DNA of 64,000 nt from Candidatus Micrarchaeia archaeon (GTDB taxonomy: Archaea > Micrarchaeota > Micrarchaeia > CAILAH01). This document shows, piece by piece, positions 8,971 through 54,734 of this stretch. The notes beneath the pieces were generated by a model. That model was not told where the DNA came from. It searched no databases and saw only the letters and a list, made by a program, of their open reading frames with translations. The translations under genes and the position numbers were made by a program. The stretch lies in assembly GCA_038874595.1 (NCBI GenBank), contig JAVZCB010000002.1, positions 1-64,000 of the forward strand, in the 5' to 3' direction. Within the stretch, counting starts at the first letter, position 1; every line of letters begins with the position of its first letter.

Positions 8971-9903
8971 TTACTCCTTGCTTTTCAAGCCCTGGACATA
9001 TATGCTGCATTCAATACCTGCCGTCATCCCCTGTGCAGCTGCGTTGATTGCCTGCGCCCATCCTTTCCCTGTCAGGTCGCCTGCAACGTATACACCTGGC
9101 ACTGTTGTGGCCTGCTTATCATCTACCTGCACAAACCCTTTCTCAGATATTGGTATACCTAGCTGCTTTGCAAGCGTATTGTTTGGGTCTTCACCCACTG
9201 CTATGAATACTCCATCTACATCAAGAACACGCTCATCACTACCAGATGTGCCCTTAAGCCGTATGCGCCTGAGCACGGTATCCCCCTCAAATGAAACCGG
9301 AGTATAGCCAAGCTGTAACTCAATCTTGTTGCTTGACAGGACCTTATCAACAACCGCTTTCTCTGCACGGAACTCGTTCCTCCTGTGCACCAGGTAAACT
9401 TTGGATGCTATGCTCTCAAGGTATAATGCATATGTGAGTGCAGTATTCCCGCCACCGATTACCGCTACAGTCCTACCTTTGAAAAAGTAACCGTCACAAG
9501 TTGCACAGTATGAAACACCTCTCCCAGTAAAAGCTTCCTCGCCAGGTATGCCAAGGTGCCTGTGCGAGGAGCCTGTTGCAAGTATCAGGCCGAGAGAGCG
9601 CACCATCACACCTGATGATAGTTCAACCTCAAACCATTTATCAGATTTCTTAACACTCTTAACCGTATCAATCTCGACAGGTATATTCAGGTGCTCGAGA
9701 TGTTTTCTTATGCTCTCAGCATAGTCCATCCCGCTGATTTTTGAAAAGCCTGGATAATTCTCAATCTCCGTTGCCCAGCTCAGCTGGCCGCCGATTGCCC
9801 CGGACTCAAAAACAACAACGTTCATCCCATAACGTTTTGCATAAATTGCCGCTGCAGAGCCGGCAGGACCGGCACCAACCACCACAATATCGTATTCTTT
9901 CAT
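8971..9903 (-). CDS. trxB: Thioredoxin reductase
   Basis: GAGPAG, GVSYCATCDG, GGGNTA motifs. Confidence 0.95.
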   Translation of the reverse strand: MKEYDIVVVGAGPAGSAAAIYAKRYGMNVVVFESGAIGGQLSWATEIENYPGFSKISGMDYAESIRKHLEHLNIPVEIDTVKSVKKSDKWFEVELSSGVMVRSLGLILATGSSHRHLGIPGEEAFTGRGVSYCATCDGYFFKGRTVAVIGGGNTALTYALYLESIASKVYLVHRRNEFRAEKAVVDKVLSSNKIELQLGYTPVSFEGDTVLRRIRLKGTSGSDERVLDVDGVFIAVGEDPNNTLAKQLGIPISEKGFVQVDDKQATTVPGVYVAGDLTGKGWAQAINAAAQGMTAGIECSIYVQGLKSKE

Positions 9904-9920
9904 CTTAAACACCTATCCGC

Positions 9921-10568
9921 TCAGAATACAAGCCATACAAGAAGTGCGCCTGCAACAGAGCATATGAAATTCGTTGTGTACTTGTTTCCGATGCCGCGCT
10001 CTTCAAGAATTCCAAAAATGCTATCTATAAACCCTCCCAGGAATCCTATCAGCCCTATAAAGAAGGCTACCTGGATAGGGATACCCAACAGGTAAACTGA
10101 GGATAATGAGATGACAAACGCACCGCTGAGGGATGCCATTGTCCCAAGCACGGATACTGCGCCACTCGTGCCTGGTTTTACCTTGCGCATCCCCCAAAGG
10201 AAGAATGGAATATCAAAAACACCAAGCTCTGATGCAAACTTGTCGGCTGTAACGCTCGCAATGCTTGCCACATATGCAAGAAGAAACATATTATCGCCGG
10301 TAAAGAATAGCGCAACGACCATAATTGTAGGCACAAGACCGTTTGAAATTACATTTTTCCAGCCGCGCTCACCCTCAAATATGTTGAGGCGCTTTTTTGA
10401 GCGCGCGCCATACTTTGTGGCAATAACACTAACAAGCAGGAATACAAACATAAGAAGTAACATCTGGATACCTTGCGGATAACCAAGAACCAGTATGATT
10501 ACACCCATCATGAGAGCAAGCAGGAACCCTGCCTTGTCAAGCATAAATGTACTCACCATTTCATCCAC
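9921..10568 (-). CDS. DUF92 integral membrane protein
   Basis: ERGWKNVISNG, ADKFASELG, PGTSGAVS, DSIFG motifs; multiple TM helices. Confidence 0.85.
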   Translation of the reverse strand: MDEMVSTFMLDKAGFLLALMMGVIILVLGYPQGIQMLLLMFVFLLVSVIATKYGARSKKRLNIFEGERGWKNVISNGLVPTIMVVALFFTGDNMFLLAYVASIASVTADKFASELGVFDIPFFLWGMRKVKPGTSGAVSVLGTMASLSGAFVISLSSVYLLGIPIQVAFFIGLIGFLGGFIDSIFGILEERGIGNKYTTNFICSVAGALLVWLVF

Positions 10569-11679: not shown

Positions 11680-11801
11680 AATCAACACACTCTATTTATG
11701 ATAGATGAAAAAAGCTTATATGAATAGAAATACTCAAGCAAATTTTTCGCCATCTCAATACAGAAGTTTAAATAGTTTGTGATTGCTAATAAAACACAGA
11801 T

Positions 11802-12202
11802 GGCCGCGATGGTGCAATGGTAACATGGGGGGCTGTGGTGTGGTTTTCTTTTGGTGTTGTGCTAGCGCATTTCACCGAATGAAAACACCTAAAAACAAAC
11901 ACGGCCCTTTGCTCTTCGTGCAAATGGGCACGCAGAGATCCCCAGACCCGGGTTCGATACAGGGCCCCAGCGGGCCCCGTACCCCTTGCAACCATGAAAT
12001 ACAGGGCCCCAGCGGGCCCCGTACCCCTTGCAACCATGAAATACAGGGCCCCAGCGGGCCCCGTACCCCTTGCAACCATGAAATACAGGGCCCCAGCGGT
12101 GCACTTTTGCGATAGCAAAAGGCACCAACAAACCTTCAGGTTTGCTCGGCCCTGTACCACTTGCAATATTGTAGGGTATGTGCGAAAATCCCGGTCGCGG
12201 CC
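11802..12202 (+). tRNA. tRNA-His(GTG) with two introns: 99 nt at 37/38 (11839-11937) and 230 nt at T-loop 59/60 (11959-12188)
   Basis: Encoded G-1 and C73; acceptor GCCGCGA/TCGCGGC; anticodon GTG 11835-11837; BHB CTGT/GCAG; T-stem CCGGG/CCCGG split by an insert with TTCG/CGAA central helix. Confidence 0.9.
11957..12099 (+). repeat. 42-bp tandem repeat (3.4 copies) inside the tRNA-His T-loop intron
   Basis: ATACAGGGCCCCAGCGGGCCCCGTACCCCTTGCAACCATGAA at 11957, 11999 and 12041, partial at 12083. Confidence 0.95.
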
Positions 12203-12219
12203 TTCCTTTTTTTAATTCA

Positions 12220-18750: not shown

Positions 18751-18872
18751 GCTCCAATCGTCTAGTCCGGTTAAGGACACGGGCCTTTCAAGCCTGTAAC
18801 CCGGGTTCAAAGCAGGGCCTGCAGCCCGCACCTTTTGCAATGCTGGCGCCTGTGAAAGTCCCGGTTGGAGCT
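18751..18872 (+). tRNA. tRNA-Glu(TTC) with 47-nt T-loop intron at 59/60 (18812-18858)
   Basis: Acceptor GCTCCAA/TTGGAGC; anticodon TTC 18787-18789; strict BHB (TTCA/TGAA, outer CAGG/CCTG). Confidence 0.93.
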
Positions 18873-18947
18873 CTGATTTTTAAAAATGAGTGTTGAAAGC
18901 AAGATTAGGTAATATTTATATAATTGAAACCGCCTAACCATAACCCC

Positions 18948-33411: not shown

Positions 33412-34818
33412 TTAATAATCTCCTACTGATTCATCTTCGCTGGTTGATGATGGGTTCCACGTATAGTTATATTTAACATACCACTCGGTTACCCCGCCAT
33501 CATTTCGATTTGTTGTGAAGATATATTCATAATCCCAATCGCCTTTCTTGCCTTTTTCAAAAACTTTTCCTTCAACCAAGGTTATCGGCGCACTTACAAC
33601 AGCTATTTCTGCGGTGCTTATGCCCGGGTAGTTTGGATCAATCTCAACACTATAAATGCGAATAAAGTAATTGCCAATTTTACCCAGCTCACCGCTATTA
33701 ATCGTGCCTTTCGCAACCTCTGTGTTTGTGGAATCCACTACTTTTATGACTGCAACTGGTGGCTGGCCGTTTGTTCCTTCTGATATGCTCTCTATCTCAA
33801 TCTTGTTACCGCTATTATCAGGCACAACAAGCCGTTCCTTAACAAAGAGCCGGCCATTATAAATTATTTCTTTGTAAAGCGTTATGCTGTTCTCGGTAAC
33901 TTCATAGAGGTTAAAAAATTTGCGGCTCCAATTGATAAAGAAAAACAGTGCTGTCGCATGCCCATACGCTTTAATAGTAAGGGGTCCGCCAAACTCAGTC
34001 CTGACTTGAACAAGCAACTTATCTATACACGTGTACCCTCCATCCGGAAAGTAGCCATCAACATATCCATATGTTTCATACATTATCTGCCGATTTCCGT
34101 CCTTCATCACGTTTAAGAACGGGAAATCATCATACGTTCTATCAGATAATTCACACCTATCAATAACACTAGTGTCTGGCACGCCGCCTGTATCGGAATC
34201 CAACACATCTCCAGCATCAGAAACGTCCTCTGAATTGACGTCTTTAACATCTATATCTGGTAGTGCCCCGCCATCACTTGAAACATCGTCAACATCGGTA
34301 TCTGGTAGTGCCCCGCCATCACTTGAAATATCGTCAACATTATTATCTGGTAGTGCCCCGCCATCACTTGAAATATCGTCAACATCGGTATCTGGTAGTG
34401 CCCCGCCATCACTTGAAACATCGTCAACATCGGTATCTGGTAGTGCCCCGCCATCGCTTGAAACATCGTCAACATTAGTATCTGATGGCCTTCCTTTATC
34501 CGCTGAATCACTAACATCCGCAACTTTTATATCTGCTGGTGAATTTGCACCTTGCTGTGGGTTCTCACCACAATTAGTCAGAGTATTGAAAACAATGGCT
34601 GCGGTAAGAAGAGCTGTTGCCAACGCCCTTTTTCCTTTCTTTAGTGCACTAACACCTGCATTCTCTTCAGATTTTTCGTGTGGTTTTTTTGTATTCTCCC
34701 CTGCAATCTCGCAAGCGTTCTCATATGGCTGCTGCTTATGCATTTTTGCAAAAGCTTTCCAATTCTTACGGCATCTTTCAATCTTAGCATTTTCATTAGA
34801 TGGTTTGTATGTTCTCAT
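33412..34818 (-). CDS. S-layer-like surface lipoprotein with acidic 15-aa repeat stalk
   Basis: Hydrophobic stretch + TNC; DTDVDDVSSDGGALP x5; C-terminal domain similar to the neighbour 31661-33277. Confidence 0.6.
   Translation of the reverse strand: MRTYKPSNENAKIERCRKNWKAFAKMHKQQPYENACEIAGENTKKPHEKSEENAGVSALKKGKRALATALLTAAIVFNTLTNCGENPQQGANSPADIKVADVSDSADKGRPSDTNVDDVSSDGGALPDTDVDDVSSDGGALPDTDVDDISSDGGALPDNNVDDISSDGGALPDTDVDDVSSDGGALPDIDVKDVNSEDVSDAGDVLDSDTGGVPDTSVIDRCELSDRTYDDFPFLNVMKDGNRQIMYETYGYVDGYFPDGGYTCIDKLLVQVRTEFGGPLTIKAYGHATALFFFINWSRKFFNLYEVTENSITLYKEIIYNGRLFVKERLVVPDNSGNKIEIESISEGTNGQPPVAVIKVVDSTNTEVAKGTINSGELGKIGNYFIRIYSVEIDPNYPGISTAEIAVVSAPITLVEGKVFEKGKKGDWDYEYIFTTNRNDGGVTEWYVKYNYTWNPSSTSEDESVGDY
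34246..34484. repeat. 45-bp in-frame coding tandem repeat (~5 copies)
   Basis: TATCTGGTAGTGCCCCGCCATCACTTGAAACATCGTCAACATCGG, period 45. Confidence 0.95.
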
Positions 34819-43750: not shown

Positions 43751-43842
43751 GTATTCAGATGTTCATAAAATAATAAAAGCCTGTGCCACTATAAAAAATC
43801 AATAAGCAATTAGTACCGGCAAGCCGAAAGGTTTAGGAGCAT

Positions 43843-43986
43843 GGCTCCCTACAACTTCGGGTTGCCGGGGTGGTAGGGCCAAGCAAACCGAAAGGTTTGC
43901 GGGCACCTTTTGCAGACGCAAAAGTGTGGGCGCCGGCTCCCTACAACTTCGGGTTGCCGGGGTGGTAGGGGGCGCCGGCTCCCTAC
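43843..43986. repeat. Hairpin-element array (92-bp long unit + 42-bp short unit) abutting the tRNA-Cys 5' end
   Basis: GGCTCCCTACAACTTCGGGTTGCCGGGGTGGTAGGG at 43843 and 43935; GGCTCCCTAC again at 43977. Confidence 0.9.
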
Positions 43987-44227
43987 GCCGAGGTGGCAGA
44001 TTGGCTATGCGGCCGGCTGCAGAGAGCCTTTTCTTTACAAAAGAAAAGTCTCGCGAAAAGAAAGTGTGATTGGCACTATCCACTATCCTTAGGGGATAGG
44101 TGTAAACCACACTAAGGACAACGTTTGGCGAAGCCAAACGATGCGCCATTCGCTTATGCGAATGTGCGAGGAGGTACCTCCTTCCATCAGCAACCGGCAG
44201 AGAGGGGTTCAATTCCCTTCCTCGGCT
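43987..44227 (+). tRNA. tRNA-Cys(GCA) with 170-nt multi-hairpin 37/38 intron (44023-44192)
   Basis: Acceptor GCCGAGG/CCTCGGC, U73; anticodon stem GCCGG/CCGGC, GCA 44019-44021; T-loop TTCAATT; relaxed BHB. Confidence 0.88.
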
Positions 44228-44341
44228 TGTACTTTCTTTTGGTTTCGCCTCCGGCGAATATCCTAAAGAACCTACACTAAGAAACTCCTTCTGTACTCTC
44301 TTTTGGTTTCGCCTCCGGCGAATATCCTAAAGAACCTACAC
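44228..44341. repeat. 50-bp hairpin direct repeat (period 64) directly after tRNA-Cys
   Basis: TGTACT(T/C)TCTTTTGGTTTCGCCTCCGGCGAATATCCTAAAGAACCTACAC at 44228 and 44292. Confidence 0.93.
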
Positions 44342-44446
44342 CAAAAACAAGCCTATGGTTATTTTAGTGATTAATGCAAAATACGTCGTGTGCTATTTTT
44401 TTCAAAAATAGATATGTATATATATAACATTAAACAAAATATGTAT

Positions 44447-49957: not shown

Positions 49958-50011
49958 ATGGATATTGCAAGTGATAATGCTAATAAATATTGCTTTGCCT
50001 AAAAAAGATGT

Positions 50012-50132
50012 GCTCCGGTAGTGTAGCGGATAGCATTCAGCCCTGTCACGGCTGCGACCCGGGTTCGAAGCACCTCTTTTGGGATGCCTAAAGAGCTGCA
50101 CCAGAAAGGTTTCGAAAATCCCGGCCGGGGCG
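50012..50132 (+). tRNA. tRNA-Asp(GTC) with 49-nt T-loop intron at 59/60 (50070-50118)
   Basis: Acceptor GCTCCGG/CCGGGGC, G73; anticodon GTC 50045-50047; TTCG/CGAA central helix. Confidence 0.92.
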
Positions 50133-53814: not shown

Positions 53815-54537
53815 ATGATAGATGCGCATTGCCACCTCGTGGATATAAAAAATGTGGATTTTACCCAATTCTCCGAAATGGAGGCAATAGTTAATTCGGG
53901 GTATGATGTGTGCTCAAGCAGCAAAGCTGTTTATATGAAGCTGAACCGTGCTGCAGGTGATGTGCATTTGTATGCAAATGTGGGGATAGGCCCGCAAAAA
54001 TGCATGGGTCCTGACGCAATGCAGGGAGTTAGAGAGATTGAGGGGATTATAAGAGGGAATGAGAAAGTTATTGATGCGATAGGAGAGGTTGGGCTTGATT
54101 ACCATTGGGGGGATACTGAAGATAAGCGGAGGATGCAAAAGCAAGCATTTGTTGCAATGATTGCACTGGCAAAAGAACTGCAAAAGCCAATTGTGATACA
54201 CTCACGGCAGGCCACTGCGGAATGCATTCGCATTCTTGACGAAGCTAAATTTGAATATGGTGTCATGTTCCACTTTTTCTCTGGCAATCTGGAAGAAGCA
54301 AAAGATATTTCTGATAGGGGCTGGCTTGTATCCTTGCCTCCATTAAGAGGTGGGAGAATAAGCATTGCGCGTGCACTGGACCTTGAGAGTATTGCTGCTG
54401 AAACCGATGCACCTTATGTTGGGAAAACACCCTTGGATGTAAAGGAATCCATACGCATTATTGCAGAGGCCAAGGGCGCAGAGTTTCATGAGGTCGAGAA
54501 ATGCACAAGCGCAAACGTGAGAAGACTGTTCAAATAG
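53815..54537 (+). CDS. tatD: TatD-family nuclease
   Basis: DAHCH, AIGEVGLDY, IHSR, H.F, ETDAPY. Confidence 0.9.
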   Translation: MIDAHCHLVDIKNVDFTQFSEMEAIVNSGYDVCSSSKAVYMKLNRAAGDVHLYANVGIGPQKCMGPDAMQGVREIEGIIRGNEKVIDAIGEVGLDYHWGDTEDKRRMQKQAFVAMIALAKELQKPIVIHSRQATAECIRILDEAKFEYGVMFHFFSGNLEEAKDISDRGWLVSLPPLRGGRISIARALDLESIAAETDAPYVGKTPLDVKESIRIIAEAKGAEFHEVEKCTSANVRRLFK

Positions 54538-54734
54538 CAGTATTGTGCCAGTGAATTAACTAATATGACTAAAAACAAAAAAGCAAAAGATGCATAGCAA
54601 AATTACAGCTTATCTAAAATGCACAAGCGCAAACGTGAGAAGACTGTTCAAATAGCAGTATTGTGCCAGTGAATTAACTAATATGACTAAAAACAAAAAA
54701 GCAAAAGATGCATAGCAAAATTACAGCTTATCTA
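54499..54734. repeat. Exact 118-bp tandem duplication spanning both convergent stop codons
   Basis: 54499-54616 identical to 54617-54734. Confidence 0.93.

Follow-up and report, generated by a model that had tools for sequence, protein, structure and literature searches.

A 230-nt T-loop intron in the tRNA-His gene of a micrarchaeal genome and the probable growth of its repeat array in the DNA

Introns at position 59/60 of tRNA genes, that is, in the T-loop, are known from ARMAN-2 (Candidatus Micrarchaeum acidiphilum), where such introns of the helix-bulge-helix (hBH) type, a relaxed form of the bulge-helix-bulge (BHB) motif, are cleaved in vitro by the organism's own EndA, a three-unit enzyme of the epsilon2 type that tolerates relaxed motifs (Fujishima et al. 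2011, PMC3239211). The tRNA introns of Thermoproteales have been described in terms of 'large-scale intron transposition' (Fujishima et al. 2010, summarized in PMC4090602), and excised BHB introns are ligated into circles by an RtcB-type ligase, both in archaea (PMC3326292) and in metazoans, in which the products are named tricRNAs (PMC4536317). As to how archaeal tRNA introns arrive, no general route emerged from a 2026 census of the tRNA genes of Asgard archaea (bioRxiv 10.64898/2026.10.13.758758). The series of tRNA-His genes described here bears on this, and one of these genes lies in the 64-kb stretch of DNA that we analyzed (hereafter, the window), a part of contig C2 of the source genome G000 (918 kb in 7 contigs, 93.5% complete, metagenome-type assembly). 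The source is a tiny hot-spring archaeon of the Micrarchaeia; the window encodes an archaeal signal recognition particle RNA and is therefore archaeal itself. Its tRNA-His gene contains two introns, the second of which, 230 nt long and located at position 59/60, is built of tandem repeat units. We consider it likely that this is a genuine relaxed BHB intron that is removed once, and that its repeat cargo was expanded by slippage or unequal crossing-over.

The tRNA-His gene and its T-loop intron

The tRNA-His gene was missed by ARAGORN and Rfam at their default settings, and a brute-force scan of many splice-boundary combinations gave no informative boundary for it. The gene was parsed by hand, its boundaries were set by the BHB rule, and these were then verified by in silico splicing. 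The resulting features are as follows.

11767..11774, plus strand: TATA-like box TTTAAATA, about 28 nt 5' of the tRNA-His start, read from the sequence
11802..11838, plus strand: exon 1, G-1 and nt 1-37, anticodon GTG, placed by in silico splicing
11839..11937, plus strand: intron 1, 99 nt, canonical position 37/38, central helix CTGT/GCAG, bulges GGG and AGA, each cut after its second base
11938..11958, plus strand: exon 2, nt 38-59, i.e., the 3' strand of the anticodon stem, the variable loop, the 5' strand of the T-stem, and T-loop TTCGAT
11959..12188, plus strand: intron 2, 230 nt, position 59/60, relaxed hBH motif
12189..12202, plus strand: exon 3, T60, the 3' strands of the T-stem and of the acceptor stem, and discriminator C73

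ARAGORN identified the product spliced of 11839-11937 and 11959-12188 as a tRNA-His(gtg) of 73 nt with a G-1:C73 pair. The T-loop predicted for this product is TTCGATT, which is uninterrupted in the His genes of five relatives, and at exon 2 intron-free orthologues read GGGTTCGATTCCCGG. The 5' exon differs at 0-1 bases from those of four relatives and one metagenome contig, and the 3' part of intron 1 (hairpin GTGC...GCAC plus GCAGAG) is kept in relatives as well. From its spacing, TTTAAATA may serve as an archaeal-type promoter of the gene, which is directly followed by a T-run at 12203-12213.

The outer helix of the intron 2 junction is the T-stem itself, CCGGG/CCCGG (11948-11952 with 12190-12194), while the central helix of 4 bp joins TTCG (11953-11956) to CGAA (12183-12186) and is flanked by two 3-nt bulges, ATA and AAT, each cut after its second base. 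The inner helix h' of a strict hBHBh' motif is reduced to 2 bp (CA/TG), and the motif is therefore of the relaxed hBH type. When the T-arm was folded together with intron 2, the canonical junction was the minimum free energy (MFE) fold at 60 °C and lay within 0.4 kcal/mol of it at 37 °C. A second, intact tRNA-His gene, which the first-pass annotation of the window had named as a finding that would speak against its proposals, was looked for, and none was detected in the 93.5%-complete assembly. Taken together, intron 2 is a genuine BHB intron in the sole detectable tRNA-His gene of G000. The earlier annotation had thus recognized a real T-loop intron and had given its length of 230 nt correctly; the span 11957-12188 that it had assigned, however, starts two bases too early, since 11957 is the beginning of the periodic array, which takes in AT of the exon, whereas the intron begins at 11959.

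The 230 nt consist of the following parts.

11959..12000, plus strand: short unit 1, 42 nt, hairpin 1 followed by the conserved ...TTGCAAC tail and CATGAAAT
12001..12042, plus strand: short unit 2, identical to unit 1
12043..12084, plus strand: short unit 3, identical to unit 1
12085..12166, plus strand: long unit, composed of the shared 15-nt start, a 48-nt insert, the 3' arm of hairpin 1, and a ...TTGCAAT tail
12167..12188, plus strand: 3' splice module of intron 2, ending in ...GTGCGAAAA and aligning with the tail of the 54-nt His intron of G006, a relative from another genus

Tandem Repeats Finder (TRF) reported one array at 11957-12099 with a period of 42, 3.4 copies, 100% identity, and a score of 286, and the unit-initial 15-mer occurs in the window exactly four times, at 11959, 12001, 12043, and 12085. 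The intron had been described as built of 42-nt units in register with the 5' splice site. The register is as described, but the composition holds for the first 126 nt only, because the last 104 nt (12085-12188) are a longer relative of the unit with a 48-nt insert, followed by a 22-nt tail that contains the true 3' splice module. Hairpin 1 of the short unit has a 9-bp stem with one A.C apposition and the loop CAGC. The start that the long unit shares with the short ones covers 12085-12099 and its double-hairpin insert 12100-12147. Copies of this insert at 43870-43926 (minus strand) of the window and on contig C5 match it with about 80% identity over 59 nt; for C5 the value is 73.6% over a longer alignment of 106 nt, a match of the insert on C3 reaches 75.5% over 49 nt, and a hidden Markov model (HMM) of the long form matches six loci. 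Other T-loop introns of the archaeal family end in ...GTGAAAA, to which the 3' module of intron 2 is similar, and the ends quoted by the first-pass annotation for the two other T-loop introns of the window, TGAA-AG in tRNA-Glu and CGAA-AA in tRNA-Asp, are as it had read them.

As for the machinery that would process this gene, the EndA catalytic domain PF01974 was matched at C7:3-733, where the sole EndA gene of G000 lies at the start of the contig, RtcB is encoded at C3:116748-118052 (E = 1.8e-172), and RNase P RNA was detected. The EndA gene (L021) is divided into two overlapping frames, 3-410 and 356-733, each matching PF01974, a pattern that could stem from a frameshift, from an error of assembly, or from two subunit genes lying side by side, so that its architecture may be of the epsilon2 or another type; the gene is incomplete in the assembly. 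By analogy with what has been established for the family (PMC3239211, PMC4090602), tRNA-His would be transcribed from its own promoter, RNase P would trim the 5' end of the precursor, EndA would excise both introns at their BHB motifs, the 230-nt one in a single step at the junction formed by the T-stem and TTCG/CGAA, and RtcB would join the exons and probably circularize the 230-nt intron. Since RtcB is present, a circle of this intron is an expected by-product of splicing.

The His 59/60 site in relatives and the repeat family

To place the intron among its counterparts, we relied on a DNA search of 40 relatives and on exact-pattern scans of contigs with the tRNA-His 5' exon, which together recovered nine tRNA-His loci from other genomes or contigs; the scan with the 5' exon found five His loci. 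G001 and G002 belong to the same genus as G000, G006 to another genus, and G099 to another family of Micrarchaeia. The state of the 59/60 site is listed below.

G001 (same genus), G003, G005, G007, and L042 (a small second G002 contig): no intron, T-loop TTCGATT
G006 (other genus): 54-nt intron with a single homologous unit at its start
G002 (same genus): unrelated 86-nt intron
Metagenome contig L038: unrelated 41-nt intron

The 54-nt intron of G006 aligns end to end with the long unit of G000, minus the 48-nt insert, plus the tail. This makes the terminal segment of the G000 intron equivalent to an older intron with a single unit, and the three short units are additions on the G000 lineage. 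The His 59/60 site is a hot spot of intron gain, loss, and replacement, at which intron content is not conserved. The first-pass annotation was also right to see in each unit a sequence of the type that forms entire introns at other loci, for example this 54-nt intron and the 47-nt intron of tRNA-Glu in the window. Two of the His loci deserve a description of their own. In G005 (L008, G005:C2 ~10000-10310, minus strand), an intact tRNA-His is followed by a 17-nt trailer and a 30-nt hairpin element, after which comes a second copy of the 3' exon that starts next to T60, again with the trailer; such a duplication of the 3' exon might be how a T-loop intron starts to form. In G001 (L002, contig C13), a double-hairpin module like the insert of the long unit stands immediately after the discriminator base of tRNA-His and is flanked by the 7-nt direct repeat GGCCCTC, which resembles a target-site duplication.

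The unit is not confined to tRNA-His. Its family was delimited by BLAST and HMM searches of the genome and by inspection of 12 loci of relatives, the census of tRNAs and repeats in G000 being non-exhaustive. A family unit consists of hairpin 1, which is a 9-bp GC-rich stem with the loop CAGC or CGGC, followed by a tail with the consensus ACCCCTTGCAACCATGCAAG; in many copies the tail folds into a second small hairpin, CTTGCA/TGCAAG, and the long form carries a conserved double-hairpin insert inside the loop of hairpin 1. Besides tRNA-His, homologous units of G000 were found at 43853-43986 (minus strand) and 18812 of the window, at C2:175551, C3:55244, C4:78.8k, C4:126.5k, C5:96.7k, and C1:18.6k, and to these are added the twelve loci in relatives. 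According to BLAST, the family is largely restricted to the taxonomic family of the source. The two related sites in the window are the following.

18812..18858, plus strand: related copy in the 59/60 intron of tRNA-Glu(TTC), 47 nt, one degenerate unit and a 3' module ending in TGAA-AG
43853..43986, minus strand: related copies at tRNA-Cys(GCA), one short and one long unit, ending at nt 1 of the gene, which starts at 43987 (plus strand)

In every intron examined, the intronic units are in the sense orientation and start at the first base of the intron. Such copies were seen in G000 in tRNA-His, tRNA-Glu (18812-18858, in the gene at 18751-18873, whose spliced product was confirmed by ARAGORN), and tRNA-Gln, with a remnant at C2:175551, and in relatives in Ile-like, Met-like, Ala, Glu, Gln, and other tRNAs. 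A further set of copies is inverted and ends exactly at nt 1 of tRNA genes, at six tRNA 5' ends in all: tRNA-Cys, tRNA-Phe, and two hand-parsed tRNA-like genes (Ser or Leu) of G000, tRNA-Phe of G007, and one tRNA of G006. For tRNA-Cys, the position of a TATA-like box near 43790 points to a leader of about 165 nt that is composed of inverted units (partial, long, and short). The same gene has an anticodon-loop intron of about 170 nt with a different double-hairpin module, which is shared with the region 3' of tRNA-His in G001, and a 64-nt tandem repeat of 1.9 copies lies 3' of it at 44228-44348. Away from any such gene, a composite of a short and a long unit with a different insert occupies an intergenic spacer of G099 (L047, G099:C22 ~9700-9900), with no tRNA nearby according to ARAGORN.

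Hairpin 1 itself bears marks of selection. Its inner stem shows compensatory changes (e.g., GGGCCC, GGGGCC, and GGGACC with matching partners). Across 16 unique units, read on the unit-sense strand, we counted 11 A.C against 2 G.T appositions, and the A.C appositions are conserved at two different stem positions in two subfamilies. Because a sense A.C becomes a G.T wobble on the other strand, the hairpin folds better there, and the complementary strand was indeed about 5 kcal/mol more stable in 11 of the 16 units. In intronic copies, the strand with the better hairpin is the one opposite to the pre-tRNA. The compensatory changes and the strand bias together indicate selection on the hairpin, though seemingly not for a role in the intron RNA. 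On reading the units, we saw neither C nor D boxes, which a C/D-box guide RNA would have. The unit is a copy of a lineage-specific, non-coding two-hairpin DNA repeat that makes up the 5' portion of numerous tRNA introns in the archaeal family and resembles miniature inverted-repeat transposable elements (MITEs) or repetitive extragenic palindromic (REP) elements.

Growth of the array and its alternatives

Indications of how the array arose come from comparing loci of the family. A layout of one to three short units and, after them, a single long unit was seen at nine loci distributed over four genomes (tRNA-His, the Cys leader, the Phe leader, and the C3 locus in G000; Ala and Glu in G002; L025 and L033 in G007; and the spacer in G099), and the number of short units varies between loci (1, 1, 2, 3). 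All three loci with several short units are perfect arrays, given by TRF as 42 x 3.4, 41 x 2.4, and 40 x 2.3, the last in G002, each 100% identical, and in all of them the fractional copy corresponds to 12-17 nt shared with the next long unit. Arrays of n.3-n.4 copies bounded by a direct repeat are the signature of slippage or unequal exchange. At tRNA-His, the direct repeat is the 17-nt ATACAGGGCCCCAGCGG, which opens both the short unit and the adjacent long unit, and BLAST of the genome found no other copy of the His-type short unit that might have been a donor. The marks of a tandem duplication, i.e., perfect copies, a direct repeat, a variable copy number, and no external donor, are thus all present. 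The Ala intron of G002 adds to this. Its first unit begins with GCAG at the splice site, the second short unit and the long unit begin with GTGT, and the block that was duplicated is offset relative to the splice site; a second unit of the GTGT, long-unit type means that the duplication was internal and not a new arrival at the splice site.

The ancestral His intron measured about 55 nt and comprised one unit and a 3' module, a state kept in G006 and represented in G000 by the terminal long unit with its tail. The three identical 42-nt copies would have arisen recently in the DNA, probably by slippage or unequal crossing-over between the ATACAGGGCCCCAGCGG repeats. The array starts in phase with the splice site because, in all introns examined, the 5' splice site is where a unit of this family starts. 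Replication slippage, which the first-pass annotation had named as a simpler alternative to its own proposals, is now the best-supported explanation. The body of the 230-nt intron is cargo tolerated by the cell, without conserved function, and on present evidence the His locus does not reveal a new splicing mechanism.

Several points weigh against this account. The one-step excision is itself inferred, and the MFE fold of the whole 401-nt precursor lacks the junction, though folds of such length are unreliable. The copy number of the perfect 143-nt array is that given by a metagenome-derived assembly. The short unit and the adjacent long unit differ at 2-3 of about 20 positions of their 3' halves and in an 8-nt tail, and the short unit is therefore no simple fresh copy of its neighbor. 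Slippage also leaves the initial pair of a short and a long unit and the constant order of the two unexplained. Finally, in many independent genes the units lie precisely against tRNA cut points, a hint of targeted insertion for which slippage by itself gives no explanation.

Repeated targeted insertion is accordingly the first alternative to be weighed, though we regard it as unlikely. The unit, or the composite of a short and a long unit, would be a small non-autonomous mobile DNA element that lands at points of tRNA processing, and because the end of a unit resembles the end of the exon, each insertion would recreate its target, so that copies stack head to tail at the 5' splice site. The positions of the units fit with this, since their 5' ends lie exactly against tRNA-derived sequence at the 5' splice sites of 13 introns, where the units are in sense, and at the six tRNA 5' ends, where they are inverted. 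Composites that are 95-98% identical stand at three different tRNA genes of G000, and G099 has the composite at a site away from such genes. Hairpin 1 shows compensatory changes, and its bias of 11 A.C against 2 G.T appositions is typical of single-stranded-DNA elements. Other data are hard to reconcile with such an element. Searches of G000 gave neither a Y1 transposase nor a TnpB or a reverse transcriptase, eight genomes of the same family likewise gave no Y1 transposase, and the unit HMMs had no match to eight IS200-type loci of other Micrarchaeia. The sequences that precede units have no common target (TTCGAT, TTCAAA, CTCGGC, TGCGGC, CTGGA), the rest of the genome contains no copy from which the identical His units could have come, and the extra unit in G002 tRNA-Ala is of the internal GTGT type rather than the splice-site type. 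It is accordingly doubtful that the 42-nt unit and its composite form an undescribed mobile element acting through single-stranded DNA and homing to tRNA cut points (the 5' end, 37/38, and 59/60), where copies would persist because tRNA-processing enzymes remove them from the transcript. Were this true, the His array would record three successive arrivals, and the family would be a live example of the birth of archaeal tRNA introns.

A second possibility, put forward by the first-pass annotation and in our view very improbable, is recursive splicing, in which EndA would pair exon TTCG with the TGAA of successive unit ends and remove 42-nt mini-introns one at a time as circles, each removal restoring the identical junction. 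The unit ends TGAA-AT lie in phase and can, as had been noticed, form a 4-bp central helix with exon TTCG, through three Watson-Crick pairs and one G.U; a 42-nt intron of this kind followed by T60 would be a plausible hBH intron, and micrarchaeal EndA does tolerate relaxed motifs (PMC3239211). However, the internal junctions are poor. The caveat, already attached to the proposal, that internal units lack the flanking T-stem helix proved justified: the outer helix cannot form there, as CAGGG against CCGGG leaves two mismatches in the center and 3 of 5 pairs. In constrained folds the T-stem keeps its partner in the true 3' exon, and structures in which TTCG is forced onto an internal TGAA lie 4-8 kcal/mol above the true junction. 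A 4-mer able to pair with UUCG would occur at the exact phase by chance in about 3% of cases (8 of 256 4-mers), and because the family consensus already reads CCATGCAAG at the unit end, the resemblance to a splice site is weak evidence. TGAAAT is 1-2 substitutions away from the consensus arm of hairpin 2, CATGCAAG, which is also present at unit ends that are not splice-like, and splice-like unit ends are missing from the other stacked arrays (the Gln intron, Ala and Glu of G002, and the leader arrays). Moreover, arrays of the same family occur where nothing is spliced, at the inverted tRNA 5' ends and in the G099 spacer, and the block duplicated in G002 tRNA-Ala is offset from the splice site. 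Recursion is also unnecessary, because one pair of cuts removes everything.

An assembly artefact, i.e., a true locus with one short unit and mis-assembled extra copies, is likewise very improbable: the assembly is of the metagenome type with 7 contigs, a perfect array of 143 nt approaches the length of short reads, and exact-pattern scans of genomes and metagenome contigs for the unit or for the exon-unit junction found nothing, but the independent assembly of G002 contains the same kind of perfect array (40 x 2.3), several other perfect tandem repeats were resolved in G000, and assemblers usually collapse such repeats rather than expand them. Least probable of all, to the point that we set it aside, is the other proposal of the first-pass annotation, a concatemer made by rolling-circle copying of a circularized 42-nt intron; its product would have had to be reverse-transcribed and recombined into the gene. 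Such a product would indeed be expected to form a head-to-tail array with a perfect period and its start at the splice site. However, a search of G000 detected no domain of a reverse transcriptase, arrays of the family also stand in inverted orientation outside introns and in a spacer between genes, the better fold of hairpin 1 is that of the strand opposite to the pre-tRNA, and the array ends in a partial unit running into a diverged long unit, as DNA duplication between direct repeats predicts.

Slippage or unequal crossing-over in the DNA thus stays the preferred explanation of the His array, and the window offers some further interrupted genes and repeats that can be set beside it. The tRNA-Asp(GTC) gene (50011-50131) has a 49-nt 59/60 intron (50070-50118) without a repeat unit, and not all T-loop introns of the window are therefore repeat-derived. 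The tRNA-Ala(GGC) gene (556-815) has a 37/38 intron and then a perfect 63-nt tandem repeat of 2.3 copies (669-815); this repeat begins exactly at T60, so that each copy starts with a full 3' exon (T60 to A73), and each copy ends in the degenerate T-loop-like GTGTTCGC. In the orthologue of this gene in G002 (L030), there is instead a 59/60 intron made of two short units and one long unit. Other tandem repeats of the window are a perfect AT-rich one of 118 nt x 2.0 (54499-54734) and one of 45 nt x 5.3 with 93% identity (34246-34484).

Comparison with known systems

The closest described counterparts are the 59/60 introns of ARMAN-2 (PMC3239211), with which the His intron shares the lineage, the insertion point, and the relaxed motif. 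In both, the T-stem forms the outer helix, the central helix has 4 bp between two 3-nt bulges, and the inner helix is weak or absent, and in both organisms the majority of tRNA genes are interrupted. The difference lies in the content, as the tested 59/60 intron of ARMAN-2 is 13 nt long (PMC3239211), whereas that of G000 holds 230 nt of repeated units. We found no report of tRNA introns made of tandem units in the papers that we consulted. With respect to circular tRNA introns, nothing in G000 points to a function of the circle or to its use as a template.

The repeat itself is reminiscent of REP elements and the bacterial interspersed mosaic elements (BIMEs), of MITEs, and of palindrome-associated transposable elements (PATEs): it is a short GC-rich imperfect hairpin with compensatory changes and a favored strand (G.T versus A.C), its copies cluster and stack, it has no coding capacity, and it is lineage-specific. 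PATEs derive from the ends of IS200/IS605 elements. Such an origin was considered for the present family and rejected, as G000 lacks both PF01797 and PF07282, none of the eight same-family genomes searched has PF01797, and the unit HMMs gave no significant match on 8 Y1-transposase loci from 5 other Micrarchaeia genomes. Of the features that define PATE or REP elements, the strand-specific imperfect hairpin is present in the family, while a cognate enzyme and matching element ends were not found. Unlike REP elements and PATEs, the family comes without a RAYT, Y1 transposase, or TnpB in G000 and without a Y1 transposase in its taxonomic family, and its strict association with tRNA cut points is not a trait of either.

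As summarized in PMC4090602, the Thermoproteales resemble G000 in that closely similar introns recur from one tRNA gene to another and at more than one position (37/38 and 59/60), and in both cases this similarity implies spread at the level of DNA. Unlike the Thermoproteales introns, the G000 element also occurs outside introns, has the fixed short-then-long composite form, and is tandemly amplified. What the His locus contributes is a dated series at one site within one archaeal family, from no intron through a single-unit intron of about 55 nt to the swollen one of 230 nt, along with unrelated replacements. Together with the copies of the repeat at other tRNA cut points, the series suggests that the length and content of introns can shift quickly through ordinary repeat dynamics of DNA, and that an endonuclease of relaxed specificity lets essential single-copy tRNA genes carry repeat cargo. 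The same rapid gain and turnover of introns at one tRNA locus, on the scale of populations and linked to mobile DNA, is found in the Caldiarchaeum model, in which tRNA genes are disrupted as mobile DNA integrates and recombines (Sugahara et al. 2012, PMC3293823), in which, however, the element is 1.8 kb long and encodes a recombinase (PMC3293823), whereas the elements of G000 are gene-less and measure 40-100 nt.

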